NCBI GenBank assembly: GCA_018830295.1 | Contig: JAHJSM010000001.1 | Location: 65,980-129,979 of the forward strand | Reading direction: 5' to 3' | Source of the DNA: Patescibacteria group bacterium | GTDB taxonomy: Bacteria > Patescibacteriota > Minisyncoccia > Portnoybacterales > UBA2143 | DNA length: 64,000 nucleotides | Shown: positions 4,497 through 23,178 of the stretch, one piece after another | How the letters are laid out: every line of letters starts with the position of its first letter | Position numbering within the stretch: the stretch's first letter is position 1 | The notes under the pieces: model-generated | What the model was told of the DNA's origin: nothing | What the model saw: only the letters and a program-made list of their open reading frames with translations | Databases searched by the model: none | Program-made: the position numbers and the translations under genes

Positions 4497-5816
4497 TTAC
4501 CTCATCATTCTGACCACTCTTCTTAAAATGGGAGGCAGGACTTTCTTTTTGTCGGTTGATATTTCCAATGTTAACCCCGCTAAAGCCAAAGGCGTAATAT
4601 TTTCAGGCCCCTCCAAAATATTTGTTTGGTCGGTTATGTTAATAATCTGGTCCGGCGTAATAAAATTAACTTGCGGCATTTGGCTAAACGGAAATTTTTT
4701 CAGCCACTCGTCGCTTGCCACTTTTTTGCTCAAAATATTTTTTATACCGCTCAATAAACTCCCTCCCCCACAAAGATAAATCGCGGACGGAAAATATTCG
4801 GTCTGACCAAATTCCTCCAAAACTATTTCCACGCCGCTCAACCATGTTTCTATGTCTTTTTTTAAAATTTGCCTGATTTTTCTCCGAACTCCTAAACTTA
4901 ATTTTTTTTGAGAATATCTGATTTTAACCTCTTCCGCTTCGGCGAAATTAAGACCTAAAGCCGACGATAGTCGTTTGGTAAATGTTCTTCCCGCCAAAGC
5001 AAAACTCTTAATTCCTTCCACTCTCCCTTGCCTTGCCAAAGCAACATCTGTCGTTCCTCCGCCGATATCAATAAAAATGGCGCCTGATTTTTGATTAAAT
5101 CCTGAAAGTTTGGTTAATGCGTAAGGCTCGGCCGCGACTGAAAGCAAATCCAAATTCAATTTTGAAGCGATACTCTCCAACGCCCGCAAATGAACCATGG
5201 GCGCATAAACATTAAAAATACTGATAAATATTTCTTTGCCTTGAAAATCAAGCGGGTTTGTCACTTGGTACCCGTCAATTCTAATTTCGGTAATTAAAGC
5301 GTTGACTAATCGTATCTCAATTTCCGAACGGCCCGTCTCCCAAGCCAGTTGCGCGCGAACCTGATTAAACGCCTTCCATTGCGCTTTTTGAATAATATTT
5401 TTAAGTTCGGATAAATCAATTTCTTCTTCTGGTTTTTCTCTTTGACAGACAAAATCTGTTGTGGCGCCTTTGATAAATTCTCCCGCCGCCCCGATGACCG
5501 CTTTTTTGGGCGTAATCCGCGCCATCTTCACAGCCCGATTAATCGCCCTTTGACACGAAGACGCAACACCCTCAATATCCGCCACTGCCCCAGCAAACAT
5601 ATGCCCCGATGACTGCTTCGCCCGCCCAACGCCGACGACAATCCCCTGGTCCTCCGTTTGGTCGTCAAAAAAACCGCTTTCAGCTCTAAAAATCACTGCT
5701 TTAACGAATTCCGTTCCAATATCCAAAGCCAGCAAATAGTCCTTCGCTCTCCTTTTTCCGCCCCACCTCCATAAATTATTTTTAAAAAATTTAATCAACG
5801 AACCCATTTCCCGCAT
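4497..5816 (-). CDS. ftsA: cell division protein FtsA-like (actin-fold ATPase, FtsA/PilM family)
   Basis: 439 aa. Motifs LALDIGTEFVKAVIF, VGVGRAKQSSGHMFAGAVADIEGVASSCQRAINRA, IDIGGGTTDVAL and LCGGGSLLSGI are present. Its length and extra subdomain fit FtsA better than PilM. Confidence 0.65.
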   Translation of the reverse strand: MREMGSLIKFFKNNLWRWGGKRRAKDYLLALDIGTEFVKAVIFRAESGFFDDQTEDQGIVVGVGRAKQSSGHMFAGAVADIEGVASSCQRAINRAVKMARITPKKAVIGAAGEFIKGATTDFVCQREKPEEEIDLSELKNIIQKAQWKAFNQVRAQLAWETGRSEIEIRLVNALITEIRIDGYQVTNPLDFQGKEIFISIFNVYAPMVHLRALESIASKLNLDLLSVAAEPYALTKLSGFNQKSGAIFIDIGGGTTDVALARQGRVEGIKSFALAGRTFTKRLSSALGLNFAEAEEVKIRYSQKKLSLGVRRKIRQILKKDIETWLSGVEIVLEEFGQTEYFPSAIYLCGGGSLLSGIKNILSKKVASDEWLKKFPFSQMPQVNFITPDQIINITDQTNILEGPENITPLALAGLTLEISTDKKKVLPPILRRVVRMMR

Positions 5817-5867: not shown

Positions 5868-5902
5868 GGGGACAGTCCCCATTCTGAATGGGGACTGTCC
5901 CC
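5868..5902. repeat. REP-B hairpin: GGGGACAGTCCCC-attctgaat-GGGGACTGTCCCC
   Basis: 13-14 bp perfect stem. It lies 3' of the minus-strand gene 5915..7321. Confidence 0.8.
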
Positions 5903-5914
5903 TATTATAATTTC

Positions 5915-7321
5915 TTACACTAGCGGTTCCATTTCCTCTATATTATCCTCCTTTTCTTTCGGCAGTTCCTCGTCTTTCAATTTCTCTTTTACGCTTTCCA
6001 AAGAAAGAGCGTATTTCTCGCGGCTTTGATTCATGATTTCCTTTTTGTAAGAAAGATGCCCCGACGGCAAAACCTTAAGCGTTTCGGCAGAGAAAGGATC
6101 AAACGCTTCGCCATCAATGGTCATTTTGATATAAAATTCCCGCGCGCCTAAATTAATCATGTCCTCCGCCTGAAAAATCGGCGTCATTTCCATGGCCAAT
6201 TTCGCGGCGTCATCTCCGCCCACTCTGAAAACAACAATTGTCCCGATATTCCCCAAAACAGTCGCCACAACTTGCTGTAATAATTGCGCCATATATTGAT
6301 GAGCGACCGTGATGCAAAGCCCGTATTTTCTTGATTCGGTAAATAAATTTTCAAAAGTCGTCGTAATTAAATTTTGAAACTCATCCACATAAAGATAAAA
6401 ATCTTTCCTCTTATCTTCCGGCATAGACGCCCTTGCCATGCACGCCTGATAAAGTTTAGTGATAAACATTGAACCAAAAAAACTGCTGTTTTCCTCGCCC
6501 AATTTACCTTTCGCTAAATTGATTAAAAGAATTTTCTTGTCGTTCATAATTTTCTCTAAATCAATTTTGTTTTCTTTCTGCCCAAAAATGCTGCGCAACA
6601 TCGGATTGGAAAGAAATTGGCTCAACTTATTAACCAAAGGAATAATCGCCTCCGTATCAAACTTCTCCGACCAGTCGGCGAACTCAACCGCCCAGAATCT
6701 CTTGACCATATCGTCTTCAATATAGTCAGTAACTTTTTGCCGGTATCGTCTGTCTGTAAGCATAGAAATCATTCCGCGCATCGTCGCGTCAGGGTAATCA
6801 AGTAAAGCCAAAACAGTAAATCTAAAAACATGTTCTAATCGCGGCGTCCAGTTCGCTCCGAATTGCCGCTCCAAAACTTCAATCAACCCTTGGGCGACTT
6901 GGTGTTTTAATTCTGGGACAACATTCAAAAGAGGATTAAAAGAAACGGGAAAATTAATATCCGACGGGTCAATCACAACAATATCATTGATTCTTTCCTT
7001 GGGGATAAAATCCAAAATATTTTCAATCAAATCACCGTGGGGGTCAATCAAACAAACGCCATGCCCATAAGCGATATCCTGTCGGATTAAAAGTTCCAAA
7101 AATTTGGTTTTTCCCACGCCGCTTTTCCCAATAGAATAAATATGCTGTCTCCGGTCCACCCGTTTAATGCCAAAGATAAATTTTTTCGTCTCTAAAGCGG
7201 CCTCGTAATTTGTCCGGCCAAAAAAAGAGCACTCTTTCGCGTCCACATCCGCCGCTCCGTAAACCGGCAATTCCGTCGGAGGAGGCGCGCACTTAATTTT
7301 CCGAATCTTTTCTCTGGTCAT
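5915..7321 (-). CDS. VirD4/TraG/TrwB-like P-loop ATPase (T4SS coupling-protein-like), paralog 2
   Basis: 468 aa. Walker A GKSGVGKT, DPHGD shortly after it, Walker B LYVDEFQN, and a C-terminal AHQYMAQL motif are present. It is paralogous to 10975..12639. Confidence 0.5.
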   Translation of the reverse strand: MTREKIRKIKCAPPPTELPVYGAADVDAKECSFFGRTNYEAALETKKFIFGIKRVDRRQHIYSIGKSGVGKTKFLELLIRQDIAYGHGVCLIDPHGDLIENILDFIPKERINDIVVIDPSDINFPVSFNPLLNVVPELKHQVAQGLIEVLERQFGANWTPRLEHVFRFTVLALLDYPDATMRGMISMLTDRRYRQKVTDYIEDDMVKRFWAVEFADWSEKFDTEAIIPLVNKLSQFLSNPMLRSIFGQKENKIDLEKIMNDKKILLINLAKGKLGEENSSFFGSMFITKLYQACMARASMPEDKRKDFYLYVDEFQNLITTTFENLFTESRKYGLCITVAHQYMAQLLQQVVATVLGNIGTIVVFRVGGDDAAKLAMEMTPIFQAEDMINLGAREFYIKMTIDGEAFDPFSAETLKVLPSGHLSYKKEIMNQSREKYALSLESVKEKLKDEELPKEKEDNIEEMEPLV

Positions 7322-7992: not shown

Positions 7993-9204
7993 TTATCCTA
8001 TCTCATCCTTAGTTAAAAATTCTCTGATATTCATCTGTTTAATTCCTTTATACTCGCCTTTATCTATCATTTCATCCATGGAAACCACTATTTTAGGACA
8101 ATTATCCGGAATTGCCAATAAATTACCGAATTCTCTTTCATAATTTTCTTCGGTAATTTTATAAGCGACCTGAATATACAATCGCTTATTATTTTTTTCG
8201 CAGACAAAATCAACTTCCTTATTGCCAAGCTGTCCAACTGTCACTTTACAGCCAATAATTTGCATATGCAGAAAGACCAAATTTTCCAATATCTTATTAA
8301 TATCGGGCTGTTTATACCCCGCGATTGAATGCCTTAAGCCGAGATCTTCAAAATAATATTTGTCGTTGATTTCAAAAATCTTTTTGCCTTGAATGTCCGA
8401 CCGAGGAACCTTAAAAACAAAAAACGCTTGCGTCAAAAAAGACAAATAATCCAAAACGATATTAGGCGAAATATCTGTTTTTTGCGATTTTATAAAATCG
8501 CTGATTTTCTTGGCTGAAACCAAACTGCCAGTATTGTCAGCCAAATATTCAACCAACCTTTCTAAAAAAGCGGCATTGCGAATTTTGTGCCTATTGACCA
8601 CATCCTTAAAAAGAATTGTGTTATAAACATTTCTTAAATAATCGTAAACTATTGAGTCCTCTAATTCTAAATGAATTAAATAAGGCAGCCCACCGTATTT
8701 TATATATTTTAAAAACGACTCCTGATTATCCGATAATTTATGAAAAAATAAAAATTCTAAATAAGACAAACCGAAAACTTTAAATTCAATATACCTGCCG
8801 CTTAAATATGTCGCTAATTCTCCTGAAAGCAAATTAGCATTGCTGCCCGTGCAATAAATATCATACTTGCCTCTGGCGTTAAGGTCTCTTAATGCCTTCT
8901 CAAACTGTTTAATATCCTGAACTTCATCAATAAATATATAATTTTTTCTTCTCGTTTGAGTATTTCGCTTAACAAAATCTATAAGATCTTTATAGTTTTT
9001 AATTTCGTCAAATTCATTAAGTTCTTTGTTGATATAAATAATATTGGCGTTTTTGTGATTTTTCTTAACTACATCCATAAGTTGAAAAAGAAGATAACTT
9101 TTACCCACTCTCCTTTGCCCAACAATAACCTTAATAAGCCCTTTGTCCATAAAGGGGGCAATTTTTTTTAAGTAATATTTTCTTTTAATATACTTTTTGA
9201 TCAT
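7993..9204 (-). CDS. AAA+ ATPase of the DUF4143/COG1373 family
   Basis: 403 aa. Walker A IVGQRRVGKSYLL and Walker B YIFIDEVQ are present, and the C-terminal region fits DUF4143. A second, divergent copy lies at 32290..33591. Confidence 0.6.
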   Translation of the reverse strand: MIKKYIKRKYYLKKIAPFMDKGLIKVIVGQRRVGKSYLLFQLMDVVKKNHKNANIIYINKELNEFDEIKNYKDLIDFVKRNTQTRRKNYIFIDEVQDIKQFEKALRDLNARGKYDIYCTGSNANLLSGELATYLSGRYIEFKVFGLSYLEFLFFHKLSDNQESFLKYIKYGGLPYLIHLELEDSIVYDYLRNVYNTILFKDVVNRHKIRNAAFLERLVEYLADNTGSLVSAKKISDFIKSQKTDISPNIVLDYLSFLTQAFFVFKVPRSDIQGKKIFEINDKYYFEDLGLRHSIAGYKQPDINKILENLVFLHMQIIGCKVTVGQLGNKEVDFVCEKNNKRLYIQVAYKITEENYEREFGNLLAIPDNCPKIVVSMDEMIDKGEYKGIKQMNIREFLTKDEIG

Positions 9205-9289: not shown

Positions 9290-10975
9290 CTACCCCACCT
9301 CTTTAATATAACATCTTTTACAATAAATCTTCAATTCTTTTTGCTTGACTGGCGGGTAGGAGGTCTGTATTTCTTCACCACATTTGTCGCATTTAGTTTT
9401 CCAAAGTTTTGAAGGATTTCTTTTTTGGAACCTTTCCAACATTCTTTGATAGGGGCTCTTGGTTGGGATAGGTAAATGATGCTTTCTGTAAAAATCTAAT
9501 TCTGGTTCAATCAGACGAAATGGCTTGCCGGTAATTTCGCAAACAATCGCTTCGGGGATATCTACTAAATCAATGGGTATTTTGGGCTCATTATACCACT
9601 GCCATCCATTTTTTAAAACCTCGCTTTTTTTCAACGGAAATTCTATCATCGCGTAAGTGTTATTGTATGGATACAAACTCATTGATAAAGGAAAAAACTC
9701 TCCATATTCCCCGCCTTCAAGCATTTTTGTCTTGATTTTGTCCAACAATTTCCAGTATTCTTCTTTTGAATATTTTTTATTAAAAATATGATATTTCTTG
9801 CCGCGAAGTCCAACACAGCCAAAACAATGCTGGCAATTATGGCAAGCAATACAATACTCCAAATCAAGCGACTCCCGAACAAAGAAAGCGAATTTTAGAT
9901 TACTGCTGTTGACCGCTTCAACCGCTTCATAAGACAAAGAAACATTCGGTCCAACATCCCAGAGATCCATGCAATCTTTCGTCCCCGAAACCACATCTAC
10001 GCCGTAGCGGACATTTTCAACCCCGTAATCATTTCTGAAAACTTGATAACAATTTTTTGAATGCCACAATTGGTCGCCGACGCAATTAATATTTCTGCTG
10101 TCAAAATACAAATTTTGTCTGACAGTTTTTTTGAGCAAATCCTCAAATCTTTTTTTGTATCGTTCTAAAATATTCCTATCGCCCAAATTAATTTCTCTAA
10201 TTTTTTCTAAATATTCTTTTTTAGAATATTGTTTATTAAAAAAGCAATATGATTTATGCCTTAAATGCGTACAACCAAAACAACTCTGGCAATTGCGACA
10301 ATCGTAAAGAAAATATCCGTCAACACATTCTTCAGATCCGTGGCAAAAATGGCAGTTGTAAGAAGCGTAACAGTCAATCAATTCGTAACAATTCTCGCAA
10401 TGCGATGTGTTTAACAAGTCAAGGCAATCCTTAGAAGCGCCGACCCAGTAGGCATAATGAACATTTTCAAGACGCGCGGCGATCGAGACCAAATAGCAAT
10501 TTTTCAAATTAACGCCAGCGATTGTATAGGGGCTGTTAATCACGCCCTTCCAATAGTGAGTAATCGCCGGATGAGGAACGGAAAGATTTAAATTATCAAA
10601 TTGGTTAAAAAACGATTTTGAAAAATCGTATTCTCGGGCGCAGTCCTCGCCGCCCCATTGGTCCGACCACCAATATTTAAGGTCATAAATTTTATGACGA
10701 CTCTCTGGATGGAGAGTAGAAATAATTTCTTTGCCTGTCCGCGCGTCTTGTTTTTTGTAAAATTTTAGAACGGTGTTATAAAATCCGAACCTCCTTTGTT
10801 TTCGGCATTCAGGACACAATTTCGGAGGAGGAACCAGAAGTTTTTTGTAAAGCGCGATATCCTCTTTAAATATCTCAAACTTATTCTCGCATTGCTGACA
10901 TCTTACCTTTTGCGGTATAAAATTTTCTAAAATCCCCCCAAGCGCCTTATCAAAATTTGGTGTTGTGAATAACAT
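9290..10975 (-). CDS. large Cys-rich protein with internal duplication and terminal zinc ribbons, hypothetical
   Basis: 561 aa. An N-terminal ribbon (CQQC...CPEC) and two repeated modules are present, ending ...CRNCQSCFGCTHLRHKSYCFFNKQYSKKEY and ...CIACHNCQHCFGCVGLRGKKYHIFNKKYSKEEY. The C-terminal ribbon is CDKCGEEIQ...IYCKRCY. Confidence 0.5.
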   Translation of the reverse strand: MLFTTPNFDKALGGILENFIPQKVRCQQCENKFEIFKEDIALYKKLLVPPPKLCPECRKQRRFGFYNTVLKFYKKQDARTGKEIISTLHPESRHKIYDLKYWWSDQWGGEDCAREYDFSKSFFNQFDNLNLSVPHPAITHYWKGVINSPYTIAGVNLKNCYLVSIAARLENVHYAYWVGASKDCLDLLNTSHCENCYELIDCYASYNCHFCHGSEECVDGYFLYDCRNCQSCFGCTHLRHKSYCFFNKQYSKKEYLEKIREINLGDRNILERYKKRFEDLLKKTVRQNLYFDSRNINCVGDQLWHSKNCYQVFRNDYGVENVRYGVDVVSGTKDCMDLWDVGPNVSLSYEAVEAVNSSNLKFAFFVRESLDLEYCIACHNCQHCFGCVGLRGKKYHIFNKKYSKEEYWKLLDKIKTKMLEGGEYGEFFPLSMSLYPYNNTYAMIEFPLKKSEVLKNGWQWYNEPKIPIDLVDIPEAIVCEITGKPFRLIEPELDFYRKHHLPIPTKSPYQRMLERFQKRNPSKLWKTKCDKCGEEIQTSYPPVKQKELKIYCKRCYIKEVG

Positions 10976-12639
10976 TATTTCTTCCCTATCGCCTCGTCTA
11001 ATGTTTTTCTTAAATCTTTGAGATCAACTTTCACTCTTTTTTTTCTAAACGGGGTCGCTTCTTTTTTAAGAGCGTCCTCCAAAGAAACAGTTTCAAACTC
11101 TATTCCCAATTCTTTCAATTCTGTTTGCTGTCCTTGTTGTCGCGCTGGCTGTTCTTTTGGCCGTTCCGCGACTTGCGCTGTTTTGGGCTTAAAACCAAGA
11201 GAAACATTCTCGCCCGCTCTCACTTTTTCAAAACATGTTTTGCAGTAAATAGGTCTCTTACCGTCCGGCTCAAAACCAACTTCCGTTTCCTGCCCACAAC
11301 TCCAACAAGCGGTCTTATGCTTCGCTAAAGACGGCTCTTTTGACTCCTCCGCCGCCATACCACTCCACTTAATGATTTTTTCCTCAACCTCCTCCCGCGA
11401 ATTGGCGTATCTCTCTCTTGAAACGCCAATAATTTTATCCCTTTGACCCTTAACCCCATCCATCTCCATCGGCGGCAAAGTAGTCGCCGAAAAAGGACGG
11501 CTGCTAACTCCGTCTATCATTAATTTTAAATAGATATTATAATTTTCTAAATTAACCAAATCCTGAATCAAAAATTCCGGCGTAAATTCTTTTTCCAAAA
11601 ATTCCGCGTCAGCCGCGCCAACCCGAAAAGAAATAAGCGTGCCGACATTGCCAAAAACAGCGTCTCTGACCGTCGTCGTCGCGTCGCCTACTAATTGCCC
11701 AATATATTGATGGGCGATCGTTAAATTCAAACGATACTTTCTCGCCTCCGATAAAATATTGGCGAACGAATCGGTTGCAAAGTTCTGGAATTCGTCAACA
11801 TAGAGATAAAAATCTTTTCGTTCTTCTTCTGGAATTCTCACCCTCTCCATCGCCGCCAACTGAATTTTAGTAATAATCATCGCCCCCAGAAGCGCCGAAT
11901 TATCTTCTCCAATTCTTCCCTTAGCGACATTAACCAAAAGAATTTTATTGCTGTTCATTATTTCCGCGATATTAATCGTGCTTTTTGACTGACCAACAAT
12001 ATTGCGAATTAAAGAAGTTGAAAGAAACTGCCCAACCTTATTTTGAATTGCGGAAATCGCTTCATTTCTAAACTGTTCTTTCCAGCTGGCGTATTCGTTA
12101 ATCCAAAAAGACCGGACAACTGGGTCTTTAACATTGTCTATGATTTTTTGACGGTAATCTTTGTCAACCAAAATTTTCATAATCCCCAAAAGGGTCGTCC
12201 CAGGAGTATCCAAAAGCGCCAAAATACAATTACTCAAAATGTATTCCATTCGCGCCGACCAAACATTAGCCCAAATCTTTGTGAAAATTCCCATCAAGTC
12301 AGAGGAGACCAAATGCTTGTATTTAGGGTCTGATACCTGCAGAACATTAAAGCCAACTGGATAATCCATGTCTTCTGGATTAAAATAAATCACATCATTG
12401 ATTCTATGAGATGGAATTTTATCAATGACTTCCTCAACAAATTCTCCGTGAGGGTCAACAATACAAACTCCGTGGCCATTCTTAATATCCTGCAAAGCCA
12501 TATTTTTCAAAAGAACGGTCTTACCCACGCCCGTTTTTCCGATAACATAAGTATGCTGCCGTCGGTCAGGCGTCTTAATCCCAAAAACCTTCTCCCCCCC
12601 CCGAAAATTTGTCTTAGCAAAAATGTTTATATTAGACAT
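10975..12639 (-). CDS. VirD4/TraG/TrwB-like P-loop ATPase with C-terminal zinc ribbon and basic tail, paralog 1
   Basis: 554 aa. Walker A GKTGVGKT, DPHGE, Walker B LYVDEFQN and AHQYIGQL are present. The C-terminus carries CWSCGQETEVGFEPDGKRPIYCKTCF followed by a K/R-rich tail. Confidence 0.5.
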   Translation of the reverse strand: MSNINIFAKTNFRGGEKVFGIKTPDRRQHTYVIGKTGVGKTVLLKNMALQDIKNGHGVCIVDPHGEFVEEVIDKIPSHRINDVIYFNPEDMDYPVGFNVLQVSDPKYKHLVSSDLMGIFTKIWANVWSARMEYILSNCILALLDTPGTTLLGIMKILVDKDYRQKIIDNVKDPVVRSFWINEYASWKEQFRNEAISAIQNKVGQFLSTSLIRNIVGQSKSTINIAEIMNSNKILLVNVAKGRIGEDNSALLGAMIITKIQLAAMERVRIPEEERKDFYLYVDEFQNFATDSFANILSEARKYRLNLTIAHQYIGQLVGDATTTVRDAVFGNVGTLISFRVGAADAEFLEKEFTPEFLIQDLVNLENYNIYLKLMIDGVSSRPFSATTLPPMEMDGVKGQRDKIIGVSRERYANSREEVEEKIIKWSGMAAEESKEPSLAKHKTACWSCGQETEVGFEPDGKRPIYCKTCFEKVRAGENVSLGFKPKTAQVAERPKEQPARQQGQQTELKELGIEFETVSLEDALKKEATPFRKKRVKVDLKDLRKTLDEAIGKK

Positions 12640-12648: not shown

Positions 12649-14055
12649 TTACCCAATTGGTAGTCCCTTGGGGGGCTCGGCCTTTTTCGCTTCAACCTTT
12701 GGCACCAAAGGCGCTTTAACCGAGAAACTTGGATAATGATAAATCGTCGCCAGTTCCTCTATGCTTAAAACAAATGGTTTGCTCCTGATAAAAAACCAAT
12801 TTAAAACAGGAAACCGCTCAAATAAAAGCGGTTTAAAATATGAAATCACCTCCGAGTGCTGAACAAAATCTCTTTTTTTGTAATCGGCCAAAACTCTTTT
12901 CTTGCGATACGCCTCTCTGATTTTTTTGAATTGAATCGCGTAATCAATTTTAGTGGTTATTTTGCTGTTGGGCTTAAAACCATTAAGATTTTGGCTAGCG
13001 AATTGCTTATAACATCCAAAAACCGCCGCGATATTGGCTGGCCTAAAAGCTTCCTTCGGCGCCAAATACAAAAACCTGATAATTGTTTCGTATCCGATTT
13101 TTGATATATTTTCCTCAATCGCGTTAATGACACCCTGCTCCGCCTTGGTCGTTATCATTGAAAAGGGCTGTGGCTTCTCTTCTTTCTTTTCGCCCGCGCT
13201 CTCTCCCTCGCCGCCGCTAACCATTTTATTAGCTACATCAACAACCGCATCTCTCCACGCGGAAACTTCTTTAATGATTAAACTCTCTTTCTTCTTTTCT
13301 TCCCTCCCAATGAGTTTATCGCGCAATTTTTCGCCTGTTTCTTTCCATTTATCATCCACAGGTCTAACTAATGTTTGAATCCAAATCTGCTCCCCGTCCG
13401 ATATCTTATTCATCACTTCCAACAAAGAAGACATTGGGTCAACTCTTTGCTCCTCCGCTTTGGCTTCTTTTTCAAAAGCGGGATAGGTTTTAATTGGATA
13501 AGCGTCCTCTTTGGTTAAAATAAGTTCCGTCCCCCAAAGATCATAATTCTTGTTGGGAATATCAGAAGGAACAGAATTAACATAATCGTCAGTTTGCCTA
13601 ATCTCGGCTTCTGGATATTGCGCGTAAATATGCGCTTCAACCATATCGCGAAACGACGCGATAACCCTAATTAAAAAATGAATTTCTCCGCCCAAACTCA
13701 CAATTTCCAAACTAAACCATTTCTGAAATTCGCCTTTGATCTGTTTCTCTCGCCAGTTGGGACCGCCTTGAATCGCGTGCATGCCCGCGAAAAATTGCTC
13801 CATCGCTTGGGGAGTTTTTTGAACCTCGCGGGGAGGTCTAACTTCCAATAAAACCCATTCTAATTTGTTAACAAAATTTTGTCTTTGATGTTTAAACCAT
13901 AAATCCCTGGCAAGAATCAGAAGAAACCAGGGAACATAAATCCACCAGAGAGATAATAAAAACCCTCCAATTAGATAAGCGCCATTTAAGACAGTTAAAG
14001 AAATTTCTAAATAATTAGGCATAATCGCCGTAAAACTACAACTACTTCGCCACAC
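12649..14055 (-). CDS. hypothetical membrane-anchored protein (N-terminal TM hairpin plus ~400 aa soluble domain)
   Basis: 468 aa. The N-terminal hydrophobic segments are GAYLIGGFLLSLWWIYVPWFLLILA. It overlaps the upstream gene by 14 nt. A later start at MPNYL (14022) is possible. I could not recognise a family. Confidence 0.45.
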   Translation of the reverse strand: MWRSSCSFTAIMPNYLEISLTVLNGAYLIGGFLLSLWWIYVPWFLLILARDLWFKHQRQNFVNKLEWVLLEVRPPREVQKTPQAMEQFFAGMHAIQGGPNWREKQIKGEFQKWFSLEIVSLGGEIHFLIRVIASFRDMVEAHIYAQYPEAEIRQTDDYVNSVPSDIPNKNYDLWGTELILTKEDAYPIKTYPAFEKEAKAEEQRVDPMSSLLEVMNKISDGEQIWIQTLVRPVDDKWKETGEKLRDKLIGREEKKKESLIIKEVSAWRDAVVDVANKMVSGGEGESAGEKKEEKPQPFSMITTKAEQGVINAIEENISKIGYETIIRFLYLAPKEAFRPANIAAVFGCYKQFASQNLNGFKPNSKITTKIDYAIQFKKIREAYRKKRVLADYKKRDFVQHSEVISYFKPLLFERFPVLNWFFIRSKPFVLSIEELATIYHYPSFSVKAPLVPKVEAKKAEPPKGLPIG

Positions 14056-15064
14056 TATAAATATCGCCCTCTTTAGTAAAAAGCTGTCTATTCTGAAGAT
14101 TGATTAAAACAGTGTTTTTCTTAACTAAACGACTTTTAAGAACCTCATTCAAAATATCCTCCTTAGCCAAAGGTCCTTTATCCTTTAATGTTTGAATAAT
14201 GACATCTTTAATCGTGCCTGGCTGATAACCCCACTCTTTCAAAGCATAAGTTCCGCGGCCAACTAAAATAAAGCGAGCATCTTTAATGAGTTCGTTATGA
14301 ACTGTCTGCGCTTGAGCAAGATTAGTCCCCAATTTCGCTTCGTTAATTAAGTCCGCAACTTCTCTAAAATGCAATGGTCGTTTTTGGTCTTTGAAAACAA
14401 TATAGGCCTTGTCTTTGGCGCCGCGTGGATTAATTTCAGGCCATTTGCTTAAACCAAATCGTCCAAAATTATTTTGACTGATTTGCTTAGTCGCGTCGAG
14501 ATAAGAGCATAACACCTTTTTGTCTATCTGCGCGTTTGCTTCTTTAGAAAAATCAATAATATTATTTAATAAAACTGTCTCTTTGTTCCCTTCTATTCTC
14601 TCAACTAAATAGTCAACCACTAATTGCGCTTGCGACAAAGCGTCTTTAGAATTAACCCAAAGAGAATAAAATTTATCCGATTCAACTAATCGCTGATACG
14701 GATCGCCTAACGAAAGAATAAAAAAAACAGCTCCCTTAGAAGAATCGGGGGTCTCGCATCCAGACAAAGCGGAAAGCAACCGTTCTTCGCGAACGACTCT
14801 TCCTTCGCGATTAAAAAAAGCGTCAATTGAACGAAAGGCCGGCTTAAAAATATTGATTGAGGCGGGTCTTCTCAAGTCCGAAAGAGTGGCCTCTTCTATT
14901 TGGCGAACTCGCTCCCTGGTAATTCCGTAGTTCTTGCCAATACTTTCAAGCGTCTGTCGTTGTCCATCGTCCAAGCCAAAACGCAAACGAACAATCTCGC
15001 GCGTCCGATCATTAGAAACACCCTTTAAGGCGTCAAAGACCAATTTTTCATATTTAATGCTCAT
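14042..15064 (-). CDS. sigma-70 region 4 domain protein with C-terminal HARE-HTH-like domains
   Basis: 340 aa. REIVRLRFGLDDGQRQTLESIGKNYGITRERVRQIEEATLSDLRRP matches sigma70 region 4.2. The C-terminal DARFILVGRGTYALKEWGY and FGRFGLSKW resemble the HARE-HTH (RNAP delta N-domain) signature. Confidence 0.55.
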   Translation of the reverse strand: MSIKYEKLVFDALKGVSNDRTREIVRLRFGLDDGQRQTLESIGKNYGITRERVRQIEEATLSDLRRPASINIFKPAFRSIDAFFNREGRVVREERLLSALSGCETPDSSKGAVFFILSLGDPYQRLVESDKFYSLWVNSKDALSQAQLVVDYLVERIEGNKETVLLNNIIDFSKEANAQIDKKVLCSYLDATKQISQNNFGRFGLSKWPEINPRGAKDKAYIVFKDQKRPLHFREVADLINEAKLGTNLAQAQTVHNELIKDARFILVGRGTYALKEWGYQPGTIKDVIIQTLKDKGPLAKEDILNEVLKSRLVKKNTVLINLQNRQLFTKEGDIYSVAK

Positions 15065-15112: not shown

Positions 15113-15973
15113 TTACCTCCCCTTCCAAGAAACAATTAGCGAACTCGTGATAAAGATAGAAGAATATGTGCCGACAATAATGCCGACGATTAAAGCCAAC
15201 GAGAAATATTTAATACTTTCGCCTCCCAAGAAAAATATCGCCGACAAAACAATCAGAGTCGTCAGAGAAGTGTTCAAGCATCGCGTCAAACTTTGGTTGA
15301 CGCTTTGGTCAATTGTTTCTCCAAAATTATTCCAGTCGGTCTTCAAAAGATTCTCTCTAGCGCGGTCAAAAATAACTATACTATTATTAACAGAATAACC
15401 TAAGATTGTCAAGAAGGCGGCGACAAAAGGCAGCCCGATTTCAATTTGATTGAAATGCCCTAAGAGCGCGAAGAAGCCAACTGTGATAAAAACATCATGG
15501 AAAAGCGCGATAATCGCCACAATGGCGTACTGCCAAGAAGCGACTGGCTGGGAAACTTTTCGGAAGGCCCACGCAATGTAAACAATAATCGCGAAGAGCG
15601 CGACCACAATCGCCCAAAGCGCTTTACTTTTTAGTTCATCGCCAATGAGCGGCCCGATTGATTCAAATCTATCTTCTTTTGGGCTGCCTAATTTCTTGAG
15701 AATTTCCTGATGGGTCTCTTCATCAATTTCCCGAAGGCGCAAAATGACACCTCGTTCCCCTGTTGGTTGGATATTAATATCGGATATCTCGGCTAATTTA
15801 TCCTGAATTTCTTGGTTGCTCAACCGCGTCTCGGAAAATTCAACTTCCATCAATGTTCCGCCCGTAAAGTCAATTCCCAATTTCAAACCACAAAAAATCA
15901 AACTCGCCAAACTAACCAACATCAAAATGATAGACACAGAAAAATAAATTTTACGATATTTAATGATTTTCAT
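15113..15973 (-). CDS. secF: protein-export membrane protein SecF
   Basis: The start is taken at MKIIKYRKIYFSVSIILMLVSL (ATG at 15971-15973), just after the secD stop at 15984. The GIDFTGGT motif and multiple TM segments are present. The ORF-track N-terminal extension to 16024 overlaps secD and is unlikely. Confidence 0.8.
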   Translation of the reverse strand: MKIIKYRKIYFSVSIILMLVSLASLIFCGLKLGIDFTGGTLMEVEFSETRLSNQEIQDKLAEISDINIQPTGERGVILRLREIDEETHQEILKKLGSPKEDRFESIGPLIGDELKSKALWAIVVALFAIIVYIAWAFRKVSQPVASWQYAIVAIIALFHDVFITVGFFALLGHFNQIEIGLPFVAAFLTILGYSVNNSIVIFDRARENLLKTDWNNFGETIDQSVNQSLTRCLNTSLTTLIVLSAIFFLGGESIKYFSLALIVGIIVGTYSSIFITSSLIVSWKGR

Positions 15974-15983
15974 AATATTAAGG

Positions 15984-17432
15984 TTATCCCCAGATCTTTC
16001 TCTTCCCCTCCAATCGCCCCCCAATAAACAACCTTAAAAAACTCTTCGTCACAACAATCGCGCTAAACATACTGATAACAACCCCAATTCCTAATGTCAA
16101 AGCAAACCCCTTCACTAATCCTGTAGCGAAAATATATAAAATCAAACAAGTAATAATTGTTGAAATATTGCCGTCACGAATAGCCGACCAAGCGCGGCGG
16201 AAGCCCTCGTCAATACTGCCTCCCAGACCTTTGCCTTTTCTAAATTCTTCCTTAAATCTTTCAAATATTAAAATATTCGCGTCAACCGCCATTCCGATTG
16301 ATAAAATAAAGCCAGCGATGCCCGCCAAAGAAAGCGTGACTGGAATTAGTTTAAAAACAGCCAAAACCAAAGCGACATAAATAATTAAAGAGAAACAAGA
16401 AATCAAACCAAGTAAACGGTAATAAAAAATCATAAAAAGCAAAACCGCCAAAAATCCCCAAATCGCCGCTTGAAGCGATTTGTCCAAAGAAACCTGCCCC
16501 AAGCTCGCGCCGACCGTTTGCTGGCTAACTAAATTTATCGGTACGGGCAAAGCGCCCGCGTTCAATCGCTGGACCAATGTTTTCGCTTCTTCTAATGTAA
16601 AGTCACCCGTAATTTGCGCCTTACCTCCAGAAATCGCCTCTTGAACCATCGGCGCGCTAATCGCTTCTCCGTCCAAATAAATAGCCATTCTTTTCCCGAC
16701 ATTCTTTCTTGTTAAGTCCTCAAACATTTTGCTTCCCTCGTCGTCAAACTCCAAACCAATTTGCGATTGATATGTTTGCTGGTCAAACTGCATTTGAGCG
16801 CCCTCTAAATATCGCCCCGTTAAAAGCGTCGGCTTGAAGTATGGGTCCTCAAATAAAAGCGCTTGTTCCTCTTCGGTTATTTCCGTCCCCGCGTTAATTT
16901 TCGCGACAATTTCTTTTTGAGCGGCTAAAATATTTTCTGTTTCTGAACTATCTTTTTCCTCGCGAAAATCCAAAAAAGGCGTCTGACCAATCATTTCAAT
17001 CGCCTGATGAGTGTCCTTGATTCCCGCCAATTCAACAATTAAACGGTATCTGTCGCCCACCTTATTAATCTGAACGACCGGCTCAGCAACGCCAAAAAGA
17101 TTAACCCGCCTTTCAATCACATCGCGCGCGCCTTCCATTGAATCCATTCTGTCACCCGAAACGACATTGGAAAAATCCGCCTCGTAAATCAAATGCGCTC
17201 CACCCATCAAATCAAGTCCGAGATGAAATGGTTTATTATAAAAATGAGGCAGGATTGTTGTCCCCGCCTGATAATTAACCCAATCAGCGCCCTTGTCCCA
17301 AACATTGGGATAAATAAAAAAGCCCGCCAAAGCGCCCATAATTAAAATCAAAAAAACAGTCCAATATATTCTCCTTGAACCAATTTTTTTTCTCCGCGGT
17401 TTTTCGCTTGTATTTTTAACAAAAATCCCCAT
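15984..17432 (-). CDS. secD: protein-export membrane protein SecD
   Basis: 482 aa. An N-terminal TM segment, a periplasmic domain and C-terminal 6-TM RND-like region are present (LGLDLMGG, AGIAGFILSIGMAVDANILIFER). Confidence 0.85.
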   Translation of the reverse strand: MGIFVKNTSEKPRRKKIGSRRIYWTVFLILIMGALAGFFIYPNVWDKGADWVNYQAGTTILPHFYNKPFHLGLDLMGGAHLIYEADFSNVVSGDRMDSMEGARDVIERRVNLFGVAEPVVQINKVGDRYRLIVELAGIKDTHQAIEMIGQTPFLDFREEKDSSETENILAAQKEIVAKINAGTEITEEEQALLFEDPYFKPTLLTGRYLEGAQMQFDQQTYQSQIGLEFDDEGSKMFEDLTRKNVGKRMAIYLDGEAISAPMVQEAISGGKAQITGDFTLEEAKTLVQRLNAGALPVPINLVSQQTVGASLGQVSLDKSLQAAIWGFLAVLLFMIFYYRLLGLISCFSLIIYVALVLAVFKLIPVTLSLAGIAGFILSIGMAVDANILIFERFKEEFRKGKGLGGSIDEGFRRAWSAIRDGNISTIITCLILYIFATGLVKGFALTLGIGVVISMFSAIVVTKSFLRLFIGGRLEGKRKIWG

Positions 17433-17900: not shown

Positions 17901-18917
17901 TTATCTGCTGAATTTTATGAAATACTCCTTTGGTTTGGATTCTTTCTCAACAAATTCCGCCCACCCTCCGTCAACCTCTGAAAGTCGTTTTATTGAATCG
18001 CTCTCTTTAAACAACGGGTCAACTATTCTTGATTTACAAAAAACCCGAGCATAATAATCGTTCGGATTATTTTCAAAAGATATTTTATTATTCATTCTAT
18101 CTAAAAACAAACTCATTTTGAGGTCTTTCTCCTTATATTTCTCAACCTTAGCCAAGACCTCATCTTCGGTCGTCCACAAATCATCTTTGGAAATATATTC
18201 CTTTTCTATAGCGTGCTTCATCGCATCACCAACCGTTCTAAACATAATCGCCGACGATAATCCCGCATAATAATTTTTATTTAAATTTGAAAACAACAAC
18301 GCGTATTTTTTAGCGCTTTTCAAATCGTTAAAAACCCACCTATTATTTTCAATCGCCAAACTATCTAAAAAATATTTTATTTCTTTGGTGTTCGTCTCTT
18401 GAAAATGCGTAGCTGACCTTAATGAATAATCAATTCTATCAGCGCATAAATCAGGTAATTTTTTCTCTAATAAAGGAAAATTTTCTTCATTCAAAATATA
18501 GTCCAAATCAAAATTATATTTTTCCAAAATGCTTGGAATTTTTGTCGTTCTAACAAAGTCCGCGAAGATATCGTCTTGATAACTTTGTTCTGTCTCCGAG
18601 CCCTCGTCAAAAACATAGTCAATACAATGAGAAAAAGCGGAATGCGAAAGGTCGTGAAGCAAACCAGACACCTGTTCCTCAAGAGAGGCGTTAAATTTTT
18701 TAAGCAGAATAAAAACGCCCACTGAATGGTCAAAACGGTTATGCTGCAATTGGCTCAAAGGAAGTGATTTAGGATTGGCGTAAAGAGGCAAATACCCCGC
18801 TTGGTCTATCCCCTTCAACCGCCGAAAACAAGCCGCCTCCATAATCTCCAAAACCAACGGCTCCCCAATCTCAACCCCTCCATAAACTTTATCAATATAT
18901 TTCATAATTTTCCCCAA
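17901..18917 (-). CDS. HD-domain metal-dependent phosphohydrolase
   Basis: 338 aa. HD-domain motifs are present: RFDHSVGV, LLHDLSHSAFSH and CADRIDYSLRSA. Confidence 0.6.
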   Translation of the reverse strand: MGKIMKYIDKVYGGVEIGEPLVLEIMEAACFRRLKGIDQAGYLPLYANPKSLPLSQLQHNRFDHSVGVFILLKKFNASLEEQVSGLLHDLSHSAFSHCIDYVFDEGSETEQSYQDDIFADFVRTTKIPSILEKYNFDLDYILNEENFPLLEKKLPDLCADRIDYSLRSATHFQETNTKEIKYFLDSLAIENNRWVFNDLKSAKKYALLFSNLNKNYYAGLSSAIMFRTVGDAMKHAIEKEYISKDDLWTTEDEVLAKVEKYKEKDLKMSLFLDRMNNKISFENNPNDYYARVFCKSRIVDPLFKESDSIKRLSEVDGGWAEFVEKESKPKEYFIKFSR

Positions 18918-18927
18918 TTTATTACAG

Positions 18928-18998
18928 TCGGCTTTACCAAAGCCGAATACTCTAACTTATGGCAATTGGCTATTCGGCTTTGGTAAAGCCGAATAGCC
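18928..18998. repeat. REP-A2 doublet: two inverted copies of TCGGCTTT(ACC/GGT)AAAGCCGA
   Basis: Element a lies at 18928-18949 and element b at 18968-18998 (GGCTATTCGGCTTTGGTAAAGCCGAATAGCC). They share the stem TTCGGCT/AGCCGAA with REP-A. Element b encodes the C-terminus (LFGFTKAE) and the stop codon of the RAYT gene. Confidence 0.75.
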
Positions 18999-19614
18999 AT
19001 TCCGTGAAATCTTTTTTAAATTGTTTTTTGTCTGCGATAAATAACTCAAAAAATTTATTTTGATTAGTGACAAATGAAAAATTATCTTTTCCAATAATAT
19101 CTAAATAACTTGACCATTTATAATCTTCTAAAAATTTTATCGTTTGTTTCTGATTGCTTAGACCGTTTTCCTTCCAATTTTTATCAATTAATTGAATTGG
19201 ATTAGCAAAAATATAAAATGGTAAATACGTAAAATGATTATCTTTCTTTATAAGGATTATTTTTGACTTACCTTGAAATAAAACTCCGCTTCGTTCGTTT
19301 TTCAAATTAAAATATTGAGTATAGCTACTATTTACTTTCTTAGAAAACATACTTGCGCCGCCGTCGCGCTTCTCTCGAACTAAAATATGATAATGATTAG
19401 ACATCAAGCACCAACACAAAACATCCACCAACCCATCATCATCGCTGGTCGGCTTTCGGATAGCCGACCGTCGTTTGTGGTATGACATAAATGTTTCGTT
19501 TTTATTGTTAAAGTCGTAGAGATTATGAACAAAACGCAAATAATCTCTTTCATCAAGAAAAATTTTACGCTTATCTACACCTCTATTTAAGATATGATAA
19601 ATATCTCCCTTCAT
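18970..19614 (-). CDS. IS200/IS605-family Y1 transposase of the REP-associated (RAYT, TnpA_REP) type
   Basis: 214 aa. YHILNRGVDKRKIF...LMSNHYHILV is the HuH motif, SSYTQYFN carries the candidate catalytic Tyr, and FQGKSK and YKWSSY follow. This pattern matches E. coli RAYT and IS200 TnpA. REP-A family palindromes flank it on both sides. Confidence 0.75.
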   Translation of the reverse strand: MKGDIYHILNRGVDKRKIFLDERDYLRFVHNLYDFNNKNETFMSYHKRRSAIRKPTSDDDGLVDVLCWCLMSNHYHILVREKRDGGASMFSKKVNSSYTQYFNLKNERSGVLFQGKSKIILIKKDNHFTYLPFYIFANPIQLIDKNWKENGLSNQKQTIKFLEDYKWSSYLDIIGKDNFSFVTNQNKFFELFIADKKQFKKDFTEWLFGFTKAE

Positions 19615-19617
19615 AAT

Positions 19618-22797: not shown

Positions 22798-23178
22798 TTA
22801 TTTCAAGTTTTTTAAATATTCCTTTATTCTCTCCCGATTCTCGTTCTCCTTGTTTCCTTTGAAATATATCTCAATAAATTCAATCCCAATCATTTCTATT
22901 GTTTGATGATTTTCAATATAGGCGTAAATAATTCTTAAATCCTTTTTCTTTAAACTTCTGCAAAAAAATCTTGCTTTAATAATGTAAATAAAATCATTTT
23001 TCGCAATTACATTAAAATGTTTGCCAATCCCCAAGGGCGCCGCGCTCAAAACCTTTTTAAATTCGGTTAAATCATCATCCGTGGTCTTGAATTTTTTAGA
23101 TAATTTCTTAAAATCTTTTTGAAATTCCTCCGTATTTTTAAAGTTCATCGTCATAGTTTCTGACCGAGTGGTCATCAT
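22798..23178 (-). CDS. RelE/YafQ-like toxin paired with the Panacea-domain antitoxin
   Basis: 126 aa. The C-terminal KKDLRIIYAYIENHQTIEMIGIEFIEIY resembles the RelE/YafQ core. It overlaps the upstream antitoxin gene. The likely start is an internal Met (MNFKN, about 23148). Confidence 0.45.
   Translation of the reverse strand: MMTTRSETMTMNFKNTEEFQKDFKKLSKKFKTTDDDLTEFKKVLSAAPLGIGKHFNVIAKNDFIYIIKARFFCRSLKKKDLRIIYAYIENHQTIEMIGIEFIEIYFKGNKENENRERIKEYLKNLK

Follow-up and report, generated by a model that had tools for sequence, protein, structure and literature searches.

What might a cysteine-rich protein do whose gene begins on the last base of the gene for a secretion-type motor ATPase? In the window, by which we mean the whole 64 kb stretch of DNA analysed here, the two genes lie on the same strand and meet in the sequence TAATG, with base 10975 common to both. 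This bears out the 1 nt overlap given in a preliminary description of the locus, the features of which are all present where it placed them (Table 1). The protein is identical to a database entry (MBU2579423.1, ‘hypothetical protein’), and Cys makes up 31 of its 561 aa (5.5%). It belongs to a large unnamed family found only in Patescibacteria (CPR) and often encoded in long arrays beside two secretion-type motor ATPases, so that it offers a concrete lead to what such motors do in these bacteria. Our tentative answer is that the Cys-rich protein is a predicted docking subunit or adaptor that acts in the cytoplasm for a split T4CP-like motor, itself membrane-anchored and specific to Patescibacteria.

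Table 1. Features of the Cys-rich protein and its gene cluster (window coordinates; residue numbers are those of the protein concerned)
Feature	Coordinates	Strand	Basis
Membrane-anchored partner, 468 aa, hydrophobic N-terminus	12649..14055	-	synteny, fusion
Sigma70_r4 + HARE-HTH DNA-binding protein, first gene of conserved cluster	14042..15064	-	Pfam
ATPase 1, VirD4/TrwB-like (T4CP-like) P-loop ATPase, 554 aa	10975..12639	-	Pfam, PDB
CxxC-x17-CxxC zinc ribbon on ATPase 1, residues 441-474, then charged tail	11218..11319	-	PF23477, TIGR04272
Cys-rich protein gene, 561 aa, stop codon included	9290..10975	-	ORF list, exact database match
N-terminal helix, residues 1-22, subfamily-specific extension	10910..10975	-	AF2 helix 6-17, pLDDT >83
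N-terminal zinc ribbon A, residues 23-64, C26/C29/C54/C57, PF13451-like	10784..10909	-	conservation, pLDDT 93-95
Degenerate ribbon B-like element, N-terminal unit, residues 65-110	10646..10783	-	hhalign
Cys/Ser-ladder repeat module 1, residues 156-262	10190..10510	-	hhalign, autocorrelation, AF2
Inter-module connector, residues 263-304, basic, helical in full-length model	10064..10189	-	AF2
Repeat module 2, residues 305-414, more degenerate copy	9734..10063	-	hhalign, 40% identity to module 1
End of conserved helix with motif MLxxGEYGEFFP (418-428), then variable linker; residues 415-478	9542..9733	-	
Degenerate ribbon A-like element, C-terminal unit, residues 479-523	9407..9541	-	hhalign
C-terminal zinc ribbon B, residues 524-561, C529/C532/C552/C555, PF23477/TIGR04272-like	9293..9406	-	profiles
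ATPase 2, short ATPase 1 paralog (45% identity), without ribbon	5915..7321	-	tblastn, Pfam

ATPase 1 (identical to MBU2579424.1) has a Walker A/B NTPase domain homologous to TrwB/VirD4, with the motifs GKTGVGKT and DEFQ. It matches the Pfam profiles TrwB_AAD_bind (4.7e-12), T4SS-DNA_transf (3.1e-6) and TraG-D_C (1.5e-5), and also DUF87, and TrwB is its closest solved relative by sequence in the PDB (E about 1e-5). It nevertheless falls under every NCBIfam T4CP cut-off (e.g. 53.7 versus 366 bits). ATPase 2 matches the same TrwB_AAD_bind, T4SS-DNA_transf and TraG-D_C profiles, and similar short ATPases of ~480-500 aa flank the family arrays in related loci. No membrane segment of its own is found in ATPase 1 (maximum KD19 1.48). 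The gene directly upstream encodes a membrane protein without a Pfam match. In 11 family loci a homolog of this protein immediately precedes the ATPase, and in six the two are fused; among the 80 ATPase loci it occurs in 47, usually just upstream of the ATPase, and a single profile, phrog_5156, spans both proteins. To judge from these fusions and gene orders, the coupling protein is probably split in two, with the membrane partner supplying the membrane half that ATPase 1 lacks. TrwB, VirD4 and TraD carry an N-terminal transmembrane anchor in the same polypeptide and are encoded with VirB4 and further T4SS channel genes or with a relaxase, whereas here the motor is separated from its anchor; ATPase 1 also differs in not being beside virB4. 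The 18 window proteins scanned against Pfam contain no VirB-type T4SS channel-component domain. The sigma_r4/HARE-HTH gene precedes that of the membrane protein in 11 family loci and again in 35 ATPase loci. The membrane protein, the second ATPase and the sigma_r4/HARE-HTH protein are conserved partners that had previously been passed over.

The association of family and motor recurs well beyond the window. A T4CP-like ATPase is encoded in 33 of 83 non-redundant family loci, and in 26 of the 83 it is the immediate neighbour on the same strand. For such direct neighbours the enrichment is about ten-fold over a chance expectation of ~4%, itself a rough estimate based on ~2 such genes per genome (PMC12102498) and an assumed genome of ~1 Mb. 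The recurring gene order is ATPase, Cys-rich gene in n copies, ATPase, and the junction between ribbon ATPase and Cys-rich gene measures 0-10 nt, both in the window and at several loci from metagenomes. Viewed from the ATPase side, the family is present in only 16 of the 80 loci retrieved with a ribbon ATPase, and the link is therefore not obligatory. Directly downstream of the ribbon ATPase, a family member follows in eight of 60 cases; usually the next gene is a housekeeping one, pgk for example. Many family loci have no ATPase within 10 kb.

A second connection between the two proteins is a zinc ribbon. Each terminus of the Cys-rich protein couples a PF13451-like ribbon with a PF23477-like one, a pairing missed when zinc ribbons were first proposed at both ends. 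The ribbons themselves are real: in each pair one member has lost its Cys, and the one zinc site left intact per end has Cys that are 97-99% conserved in 227 relatives and all-or-none, the four Cys being present together in 219 relatives for ribbon A and in 222 for the C-terminal ribbon B. The window protein has no match to PF13451 (zf_Tbcl) at E <= 0.1; three of 30 homologs match (best 1.2e-4), two homologs carry a precomputed PF13451 annotation, and a BFVD Foldseek search matches ribbon A to a ‘putative zinc-ribbon domain protein’ (E 3e-3). The two units resemble each other (residues 26-97 versus 479-552 by hhalign; probability 97.6%, E 2.6e-12) and both are basic (pI 9.3 and 9.5). The N-terminal ribbon B-like element has lost its Cys in the window protein (D77, D98, Y101), and across relatives these Cys are again all-or-none, with four together in 68 of 227 and at most one in 153. 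Its C-terminal counterpart, the ribbon A-like element, keeps only C479; C507 and C510 occur together in relatives (phi 0.92), and all four Cys are found in 59 of 227.

The C-terminal ribbon B scores below the cut-offs of both relevant profiles, with 20.1 bits for PF23477 (E 5.2e-4; cut-off 27 bits) and 17.9 bits for TIGR04272 (E 1.9e-3; NCBIfam cut-off 36 bits), and its spacing, C529xxC532-x19-C552xxC555, has x19 where the family definition has x17. PF23477 matches 17 of 30 homologs of the protein at E <= 0.1 (best 6e-6). By sequence the ribbon is a divergent relative of PF23477/TIGR04272, short of a scoring member. That of ATPase 1 (C445xxC448-x17-C466xxC469) is a full member of TIGR04272/PF23477 (zf_Tbcl_2), above both cut-offs (PF23477, E 4.3e-13 and 49.2 bits; TIGR04272, E 7.9e-13 and 47.9 bits). 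The proposed resemblance of the two ribbons holds: BLASTP aligns residues 526-558 of the Cys-rich protein with 442-472 of the ATPase at 39% identity (E 1e-4), and an HMM built only from the C-terminal ribbons of the family has ATPase 1 as its sole match in all six frames of the window (E 6e-6). In the reverse test, an HMM of ATPase-type ribbons leaves the Cys-rich protein unmatched at E <= 10. Applied to 1,538 + 1,152 ORFs from 166 related loci, the ribbon HMMs match the two families and one other ORF; in related loci, 17 long-type ATPases carry the ATPase ribbon near residue 450, and it is also found in most of the 80 metagenome loci. The ribbon is not a novelty, being an already described domain that binds zinc, as determined by ICP-MS, in small Methanosarcina proteins (PMC12704099). 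The CxxC-x17-CxxC proteins A00184 and A01980 of M. mazei have the same four-Cys ribbon with the signature CxxCG...P[VI]YC..C; they stand alone, are about 40-60 aa long and have no known function, whereas in the Cys-rich protein an x19 version is one of four ribbon-type elements capping 561 aa.

Between the terminal units lies a genuine internal duplication, two modules of ~107 aa (profile-profile alignment by hhalign; probability 99.85%, E 1.1e-30, 107 columns). Module 1 is built of seven ~12-residue units, a CxxCxxCxxC cap (CRNCQSCFGC, residues 226-235) and the tail YCFFNKQYSKKEY (243-255); module 2 has the cap CIACHNCQHCFGC (375-387) and the tail YHIFNKKYSKEEY (395-407). It is conceivable that the C-x2-C runs coordinate several zinc ions or Fe-S clusters, or serve as a store or buffer for metal or thiol equivalents, making the protein a metal or redox factor. 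The number of Cys (family median 32, range 20-53 in 227 relatives), the presence of all four Cys of the module 1 cap in 131 of 227 members and a weak PDB sequence match to the zinc-rich Rubicon domain (E 0.11) would suit this explanation, which we nonetheless regard as very improbable. Module Cys are only 20-95% conserved, and their loss is graded, the module 2 cap having four, three, two or one Cys in 71, 47, 76 and 32 members; the true ribbon sites are all-or-none. Pairs of Cys within modules co-occur with phi <= 0.58, versus 0.92 at a real optional zinc site, and no ferredoxin, radical-SAM or metallothionein profile matches. Single replacements by Ser, Val or Leu, combined with a period of three for Cys/Ser (autocorrelation in module 1, 0.71 at lag 3) and of 12 for Asn/Asp (0.50 at lag 12), thus argue against obligate metal sites. 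The pattern fits instead a ladder in a beta-repeat, possibly solenoid-like. AF2 run on 117 sequences places a strand every 12 residues (pLDDT 86-94 across residues 145-225); in the full-length model the module regions are of low confidence. A period of 12, Asn/Asp and small-residue (Cys/Ser) ladders and the spacing of the strands recall beta-solenoids such as the pentapeptide-repeat proteins AlbG, QnrB1 and MfpA, right-handed beta-helices and an insect antifreeze protein with 12-residue coils, but there is no sequence similarity, and the best Foldseek matches, all beta-helices, are non-significant (E 0.008-0.08, TM <= 0.15). The modules remain without a known family, with no significant match in Pfam, NCBIfam, PADLOC, PDB sequences or Foldseek. 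Identity as an Fe-S ferredoxin was rejected: the CxxCxxCxxxCP motif and a Fer4 match are absent, and module Cys are not conserved as quartets. One of 30 homologs has a weak match to Fer2_BFD (E 0.042).

Clustered at 90%, the family comprises at least 3,941 full-length homologs, and at 50% identity it still falls into at least 2,500 clusters. Every named source is patescibacterial, across several classes, with the proteins annotated as ‘hypothetical’, and the family core has no match in Pfam, NCBIfam or the PDB. The genome of the window has a single copy, and relatives hold from four to at least 15, in same-strand arrays; a single locus has up to 12 copies and a single contig at least 15. These arrays, overlooked before, are old. 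The best match of 172 of 193 array members lies in another locus, with a median identity of 55% versus 43% within a locus, so by sequence comparison the paralogs are ancient.

Tandem paralogs beside virD4-like genes also raise the thought that family members are the translocated cargo of the motor, resembling effectors or serving to build an external structure, with the C-terminal ribbon and the final residues acting as recognition signal. In the Bartonella Bep arrays beside virB/virD4, tandem same-strand paralogs with a common C-terminal domain neighbour a coupling-protein gene, and the Cys-rich arrays are alike in having such paralogs, such a domain and such a neighbour. The extreme C-terminus of the family is kept to its final residues (...CYxxEV[VG]). 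Bep proteins are recent and lineage-specific, with FIC/BID domains and a charged tail, whereas the Cys-rich paralogs are ancient, evenly conserved and capped by zinc ribbons, any secretion of them being putative. Patescibacteria are epibionts with a non-conjugative, unexplained T4SS function (PMC12102498), which would accommodate cargo; only 148 of 5,713 of their T4CP homologs, however, lie near virB4 (PMC12102498). Stable zinc-bound domains at both ends would impede threading, the same ribbon is found on the motor itself, and neither Pfam, NCBIfam nor PADLOC reveals an enzymatic or toxin domain. We consider cargo unlikely. Ancient paralogy, the absence of any hypervariable segment from the conservation profile of 227 relatives, and the position of single-copy orthologs of the window protein's subfamily among ribosomal and cell-division genes all favour core machinery over fast-evolving cargo.

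A docking subunit would work as follows. The ribbons would tether the protein to a ligand shared with the ribbon-plus-tail of the ATPase, candidates being nucleic acid, the ATPase tail or the membrane partner, and the C-terminal extension of the motor would be the likely docking site. The two repeat modules may give each paralog a binding surface of its own, so that the cargo or sites presented to the motor would differ from one family member to the next. Coupling-protein C-terminal extensions do recruit adaptors: TraD binds TraM, and DotL of Legionella binds IcmS/IcmW/LvgA and DotN, a zinc-binding accessory protein that provides a precedent. No known adaptor resembles the Cys-rich family in sequence or fold, and we know of no parallel to a need for up to 15 or more distinct adaptors. 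Direct adjacency in 26 of 83 loci against ~4% by chance, and confinement of the ribbon to two families in these neighbourhoods, favour the adaptor role, as do the basic terminal units, the fusions of membrane protein and ATPase, and the lack of a hydrophobic segment (no signal peptide or membrane segment found; maximum KD19 0.95). It is weakened by the 16 of 80 count and the family loci distant from any ATPase, by the sub-cut-off x19 ribbon that the ATPase-type HMM misses, and by the weak profile matches, under all NCBIfam cut-offs, on which the T4CP-like assignment of the ATPases is based. The original suggestion of a shared interaction or nucleic-acid-binding module thus gains from conserved synteny and from the restricted distribution of the ribbon and loses in that the link is not obligatory.

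Some of these observations would also suit an autonomous nucleic-acid-binding housekeeping factor, for instance an RNA/DNA chaperone or a ribosome or cell-division scaffold, with adjacency to the ATPase reflecting shared regulation or shared DNA binding rather than a complex. The ribbon units are basic, most ribbon-ATPase loci are without the family, the family is kept across several classes, and subfamily orthologs sit between S21/YqeY and YbeY-FtsA-FtsZ and between L7/L12-racemase and MraZ-RsmH-PBP. Ten-fold enriched adjacency with overlapping stop and start codons, and a ribbon restricted to the Cys-rich and ATPase families, speak against such a factor, and factors of this kind seldom exist as 12-15 ancient paralogs; we judge it rather unlikely.

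A wider proposal would join the Cys-rich family to the membrane protein, both T4CP-like ATPases and the sigma_r4/HARE-HTH protein in a previously unrecognised translocation apparatus specific to Patescibacteria, with the ancient paralogs, up to 15 or more, as its dedicated adaptors or substrates, an idea that we regard as somewhat doubtful. Coupling-protein homologs number about two per patescibacterial genome and are mostly far from virB4 (PMC12102498). If the apparatus exists, it would give these ‘orphan’ homologs their first functional partners and might connect them with life as epibionts or with the handling of DNA. Among the anti-phage defence models of PADLOC, the Cys-rich and membrane proteins have no match and the ATPases match the mad8/HerA models weakly.

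Conservation within the Cys-rich protein peaks at residues 400-430 (1.76 bits), where the invariant residues include K415, L419, E423, Y424 and G425, and is lowest in the connector (2.54 bits; 227 relatives). In the full-length AF2 model a helix at 267-283 comes after that at 252-261, at the end of module 1, and residues 248-304 have a pI of 9.6 and a net charge of +5. Linker residues 469-474 have pLDDT <50, and the N-terminal helix is seen in only about 42% of the 227 family members.

The Cys-rich protein of the window, whose sequence is identical to MBU2579423.1, encoded on a contig of 744,622 bp, contains 31 cysteines (5.5%), and its gene starts within the stop codon of the upstream gene for ATPase 1, a VirD4/TrwB-like protein; base 10975 is common to both ORFs, with the stop TAA and the ATG overlapping as TAATG. 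Two modules within this single chain are 40% identical, and their profiles, made from 30 homologs, match with a probability of 99.85% (E 1.1e-30, 107 columns). This puts the duplication well beyond what chance would give. The two-copy module with its Cys strings and tails, and the 1-nt overlap with the ATPase gene, are all present as the preliminary description had them. It had also been unable to assign the modules to a family, and this too stands: Pfam, NCBIfam and PDB contain no relative of the central repeat module. With the whole protein as query, Pfam, NCBIfam, PADLOC and PDB (by sequence) gave just weak ribbon matches, and tblastn against 50,697 phage genomes gave no match. PHROGs contains one weak match to module 1 (Table). 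Neither a second copy nor a pseudogene remnant of the family was found in the 64 kb window.

The relatives are numerous. In all, 3,941 homologs were retrieved at E <= 1e-3. The top 120 of them are almost all full-length (575-600 aa), and those with a named source are all unnamed or 'hypothetical' Patescibacteria proteins. A profile of the module only, run against 1.84 billion proteins, matched 2,516 representatives of clusters made at 50% identity. In the top 150 of these, full-length proteins have ~550-610 aa, many shorter entries are apparently fragments and the module is seen just in proteins of this length or shorter; most match in two stretches, about a third in three or four. Conservation is even along the chain, with the strongest blocks in the ribbons A and B (PF13451-like and PF23477-like, respectively) and in the MLxxGEYGEFFP helix. 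No description of the family was found in the literature searched.

Table. Positions of the features discussed, in nucleotides of the window unless residues (aa) or another locus are named; L numbers are fetched genome or metagenome loci
Feature	Position	Remarks
Cys-rich gene	9290-10975 (-)	561 aa
N-terminal / C-terminal unit	aa 26-97 / 479-552	pI 9.3 / 9.5
N-terminal A ribbon	C26, C29, C54, C57	all four Cys in 219/227; nearly universal
N-terminal B-like ribbon		four Cys in 68, <=1 in 153 (of 227); all-or-none
C-terminal A-like ribbon		four Cys in 59, three in 50 (of 227); C507/C510 co-occurrence phi 0.92
C-terminal B ribbon	C529, C532, C552, C555	all four Cys in 222/227; nearly universal
Module 1 / module 2	aa 156-262 / 305-414	
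CRNCQSCFGC	aa 226-235	module 1
CIACHNCQHCFGC	aa 375-387	module 2
Module tails	aa 243-255, 395-407	
MLxxGEYGEFFP helix	aa 400-430	
phrog_15341 match (276 positions)	aa 183-238; 10262-10429	E 1.9e-5
ATPase 1 gene	10975-12639 (-)	554 aa, with ribbon
Membrane protein gene	12649-14055 (-)	468 aa
sigma_r4/HARE-HTH gene	14042-15064 (-)	
sigma_r4/HARE-HTH, membrane protein, ribbon-ATPase trio	12649-15064 (-)	also L092-L166
ATPase 2 gene	5915-7321 (-)	ribbonless paralog
AAA_14/DUF4143 ATPase gene	7993-9204 (-)	GC 0.33 (lower-GC stretch)
Promoter-like site	9285-9258 (-)	sigma-70-like, 11/12
Palindrome, perfect 16-bp stem	5868-5902	GGGGACAGTCCCCATTC...GAATGGGGACTGTCCCC
FtsA/PilM-like gene	4497-5816 (-)	after ATPase 2; also L014
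HTH_3 + SocA/Panacea antitoxin-type gene	23138-23923 (-)	
Sizeable ORFs	29061-30824 (-), 17901-20112 (-)	587, 338, 214, 164 aa; no Pfam match at E <= 1e-5
YbeY-FtsA-FtsZ	L005 12209-14662	directly after Cys-rich ortholog
MraZ-RsmH-PBP-Mur	L001 12013-17341	after Cys-rich ortholog
Ribbon-bearing ORF	L068 14547-15179 (+)	210 aa; CAECGNKCEVPFRPNGRKPVYCLNC
First / second Cys-rich copy	L068 9980-11713 / 15224-17047	ORF ~2.8 kb downstream of first, just upstream of second
Short ATPase form		~480-500 aa, without ribbon
Long ATPase form	ribbon at ~residue 450	at least 544 aa; CxxC-x17-CxxC; 17 cases
Fused form (membrane-protein homolog + ATPase)		619-778 aa; L061, L070, L079, L080, L083, L086, four labelled Peregrinibacteria/Peribacteria

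The Cys of the modules and those of the ribbons behave differently. In 227 non-redundant relatives each module Cys is conserved in just 20-95% of members, being individually exchanged for Ser, Val or Leu, and pairwise co-occurrence is weak (phi <= 0.58). The CxxCxxCxxC run, or cap, is graded: 4, 3 or 2 Cys in 131, 73 and 20 members for module 1, and 4, 3, 2 or 1 in 71, 47, 76 and 32 for module 2. On these graded counts the reading in which the C-x2-C runs are obligate sites for zinc or Fe-S was rejected, and it is very improbable that the protein serves as a metal or redox protein. Where module 1 keeps all four cap Cys, as 58% of members do, the cap may bind zinc.

Autocorrelation of module 1 gives a Cys/Ser period of 3 (0.71) and an Asn/Asp period of 12 (0.50), with the repeat unit x-[ND]-C-[YF]-x-[CS]-x-x-[CS]-x-x-[CS]; the periodicity was absent from control regions. 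A strict solenoid of 12 residues per turn, as in insect antifreeze proteins, was suggested by the periodicity. In AF2 predictions from 30 full-length sequences (pTM 0.84) the ribbons and helices were confident and the modules low (pLDDT 58-70), while residues 145-425 modelled from 117 sequences reached pLDDT 86-94 over 145-225, with strands of 7-9 residues every 12 residues. Such strands cannot fit a 12-residue coil, so the strict solenoid was rejected and 'beta-repeat, possibly a two-sheet solenoid' was kept. The best Foldseek matches of this model, including pentapeptide-repeat proteins, polygalacturonases and tailspikes, are all beta-helices or solenoids but non-significant (E 0.008-0.08, TM <= 0.15), and no solved relative of the modules was found by PDB sequence search or Foldseek. 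The full-length model matched nothing in PDB under E 1, and zinc-ribbon proteins alone in BFVD. The modules are thus best described as beta-rich repeat domains carrying Cys/Ser and Asn/Asp ladders, possibly solenoid-like in fold.

The terminal units are homologous to each other (probability 97.6%, E 2.6e-12 by profile comparison), from which it follows that each end was originally a ribbon pair, A followed by B. The protein retains A alone at its N-terminus and B alone at its C-terminus. Counts over the four Cys positions of each ribbon in the same 227 relatives (Table) give the all-or-none pattern that real zinc sites would leave as their signature. The preliminary description had noted a ribbon common to the Cys-rich C-terminus and the ATPase, and the resemblance is real: the two are 39% identical over 33 residues (BLASTP E 1e-4), both match PF23477 (zf_Tbcl_2) and TIGR04272 (CxxC-x17-CxxC), and an HMM from family C-terminal ribbons alone matches ATPase 1 (E 6e-6) and nothing more when the window is searched in six frames. 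The ATPase 1 ribbon exceeds the curated cut-offs (E 4e-13); that of the Cys-rich protein, with a spacing of x19, not x17, lies under its cut-off (E 5e-4, 20.1 versus 27 bits). The reverse HMM, from ATPase-type ribbons, did not match the Cys-rich protein, and PDB profile searches with such ribbons gave chance zinc-knuckle matches alone. No other window protein has a CxxC...CxxC pair. Ribbon HMMs found no third family among 1,152 ORFs of ATPase-side loci and one further ORF outside the two families among 1,538 ORFs of family-side loci (in L068; Table), which rules out a ribbon merely common in these proteomes; nearby, it is confined to the Cys-rich family and the ATPases.

Both profile matches and the nearest solved relative mark the ATPases as VirD4/TrwB-like. 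They differ from true coupling proteins in having no membrane anchor of their own, no virB4 neighbourhood and scores below equivalog level. As membrane protein and ATPase are fused elsewhere, in six loci and in phrog_5156, the window has a split version. The phrog_5156 profile of a phage protein family (824 positions) spans both halves. In the passages considered of a 2025 survey (PMC12102498), 5,713 VirD4-like homologs are reported from 2,918 Patescibacteria genomes, 148 of them near virB4; most lie far from virB4 and may be exapted, and the survey left their role open. Those passages do not mention the Cys-rich family.

Among 83 loci counted on the family side (80 genome loci and four long contigs were fetched), the genes commonly form same-strand, tightly packed arrays with a median gap of 18 nt between copies: at least two copies in 53, at least four in 30 and at least seven in ten, the largest having 12. 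The 154 kb contig JALLOO010000001.1 has at least 15 copies in ~31 kb, a large genomic investment, spread over two fetched stretches (6 + 9 copies), with a ribbon-bearing ATPase at the end. A coupling-protein-like ATPase occurs in 33/83 loci and is an immediate same-strand neighbour of the family in 26/83, against a rough chance expectation of ~4% (about two such genes per genome, from passages of PMC12102498, and an assumed ~1 Mb genome). One arrangement that recurs has the sigma_r4/HARE-HTH gene first, then membrane protein, ATPase, n Cys-rich copies and ATPase; the window is its minimal form, with the four upstream genes overlapping or nearly abutting and one Cys-rich copy. From the ATPase side, the dominant context in 80 metagenome loci retrieved with ATPase 1 is the trio of sigma_r4/HARE-HTH protein, membrane protein and ribbon-ATPase. 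The Cys-rich family is in just 16/80 of these loci. In 8/60 cases a family member directly follows the ribbon ATPase; usually the gene there has a housekeeping function (20 times pgk). The family-ATPase link is thus strong, not obligatory.

Arrays beside a virD4-like gene recall the Bep effectors of Bartonella, and the family members could be cargo of the motor. This is unlikely given the zinc-stabilised ends, the ancient, even conservation and the ribbon on the motor itself. The best match of an array member lies in another locus in 172 of 193 cases (median 55% identity versus 43% within the locus); the paralogs are old. Together with the absence of a hypervariable segment in the family, this rules out a recent, fast-evolving expansion of the antigen or effector type.

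The Cys-rich protein, with no hydrophobic segment, is predicted to be cytoplasmic, with zinc ribbons at both ends and two mildly acidic repeat modules between its basic terminal units. Its start overlaps the stop of an ATPase with the same ribbon type and a separate membrane partner, and its paralogy is ancient. In the favoured, still tentative reading, its ribbons would dock on the same ligand as the ribbon-plus-tail of the ATPase, be it nucleic acid, the membrane partner or the ATPase tail. With the modules then presenting a paralog-specific surface, family members would serve a split coupling-protein-like motor as its adaptors. Coupling-protein C-terminal extensions do recruit adaptors: TraM in the case of TraD, and IcmS/IcmW/LvgA together with the zinc protein DotN in that of DotL. 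The basic ribbons, and single-copy orthologs lying among ribosomal and cell-division genes, would also suit an autonomous nucleic-acid-binding housekeeping factor, which we consider rather improbable. Overall, the observation in the preliminary description is confirmed and extended, and its interpretation is supported in part.

The finding is no artefact, and no known family accounts for it. The parts are of known kinds, zinc ribbons and a coupling-protein-like ATPase, and the ribbons probably belong to or derive from the described PF23477/TIGR04272 and PF13451; for the central modules, and for the architecture as a whole, no described counterpart was found. Patescibacteria account for a large part of bacterial diversity, yet no function is known for the majority of their conserved genes. 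An unnamed family able to occupy a large share of a small genome appears tied to motors of acknowledged-open role, and is a candidate set of partners, the first put forward here, for the VirD4-like motors of Patescibacteria. If its proteins bind to the motor or are carried through it, the family would be a route to what the motor does.

Several minor features accompany these genes (Table). The AAA_14/DUF4143 gene lies between the Cys-rich gene and ATPase 2, and just upstream of it is the strong promoter-like site, the region's best match to sigma-70. In the close relatives L010 and L014 the ortholog is directly followed at this place by further Cys-rich paralogs, and the gene looks like an insertion or replacement. 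The palindrome, located between the FtsA/PilM-like gene and that of ATPase 2, may be a bidirectional terminator. The trio is conserved in the majority of the 80 metagenome loci, where housekeeping genes, pgk for example, usually come next, and cell-division genes recur near the family.
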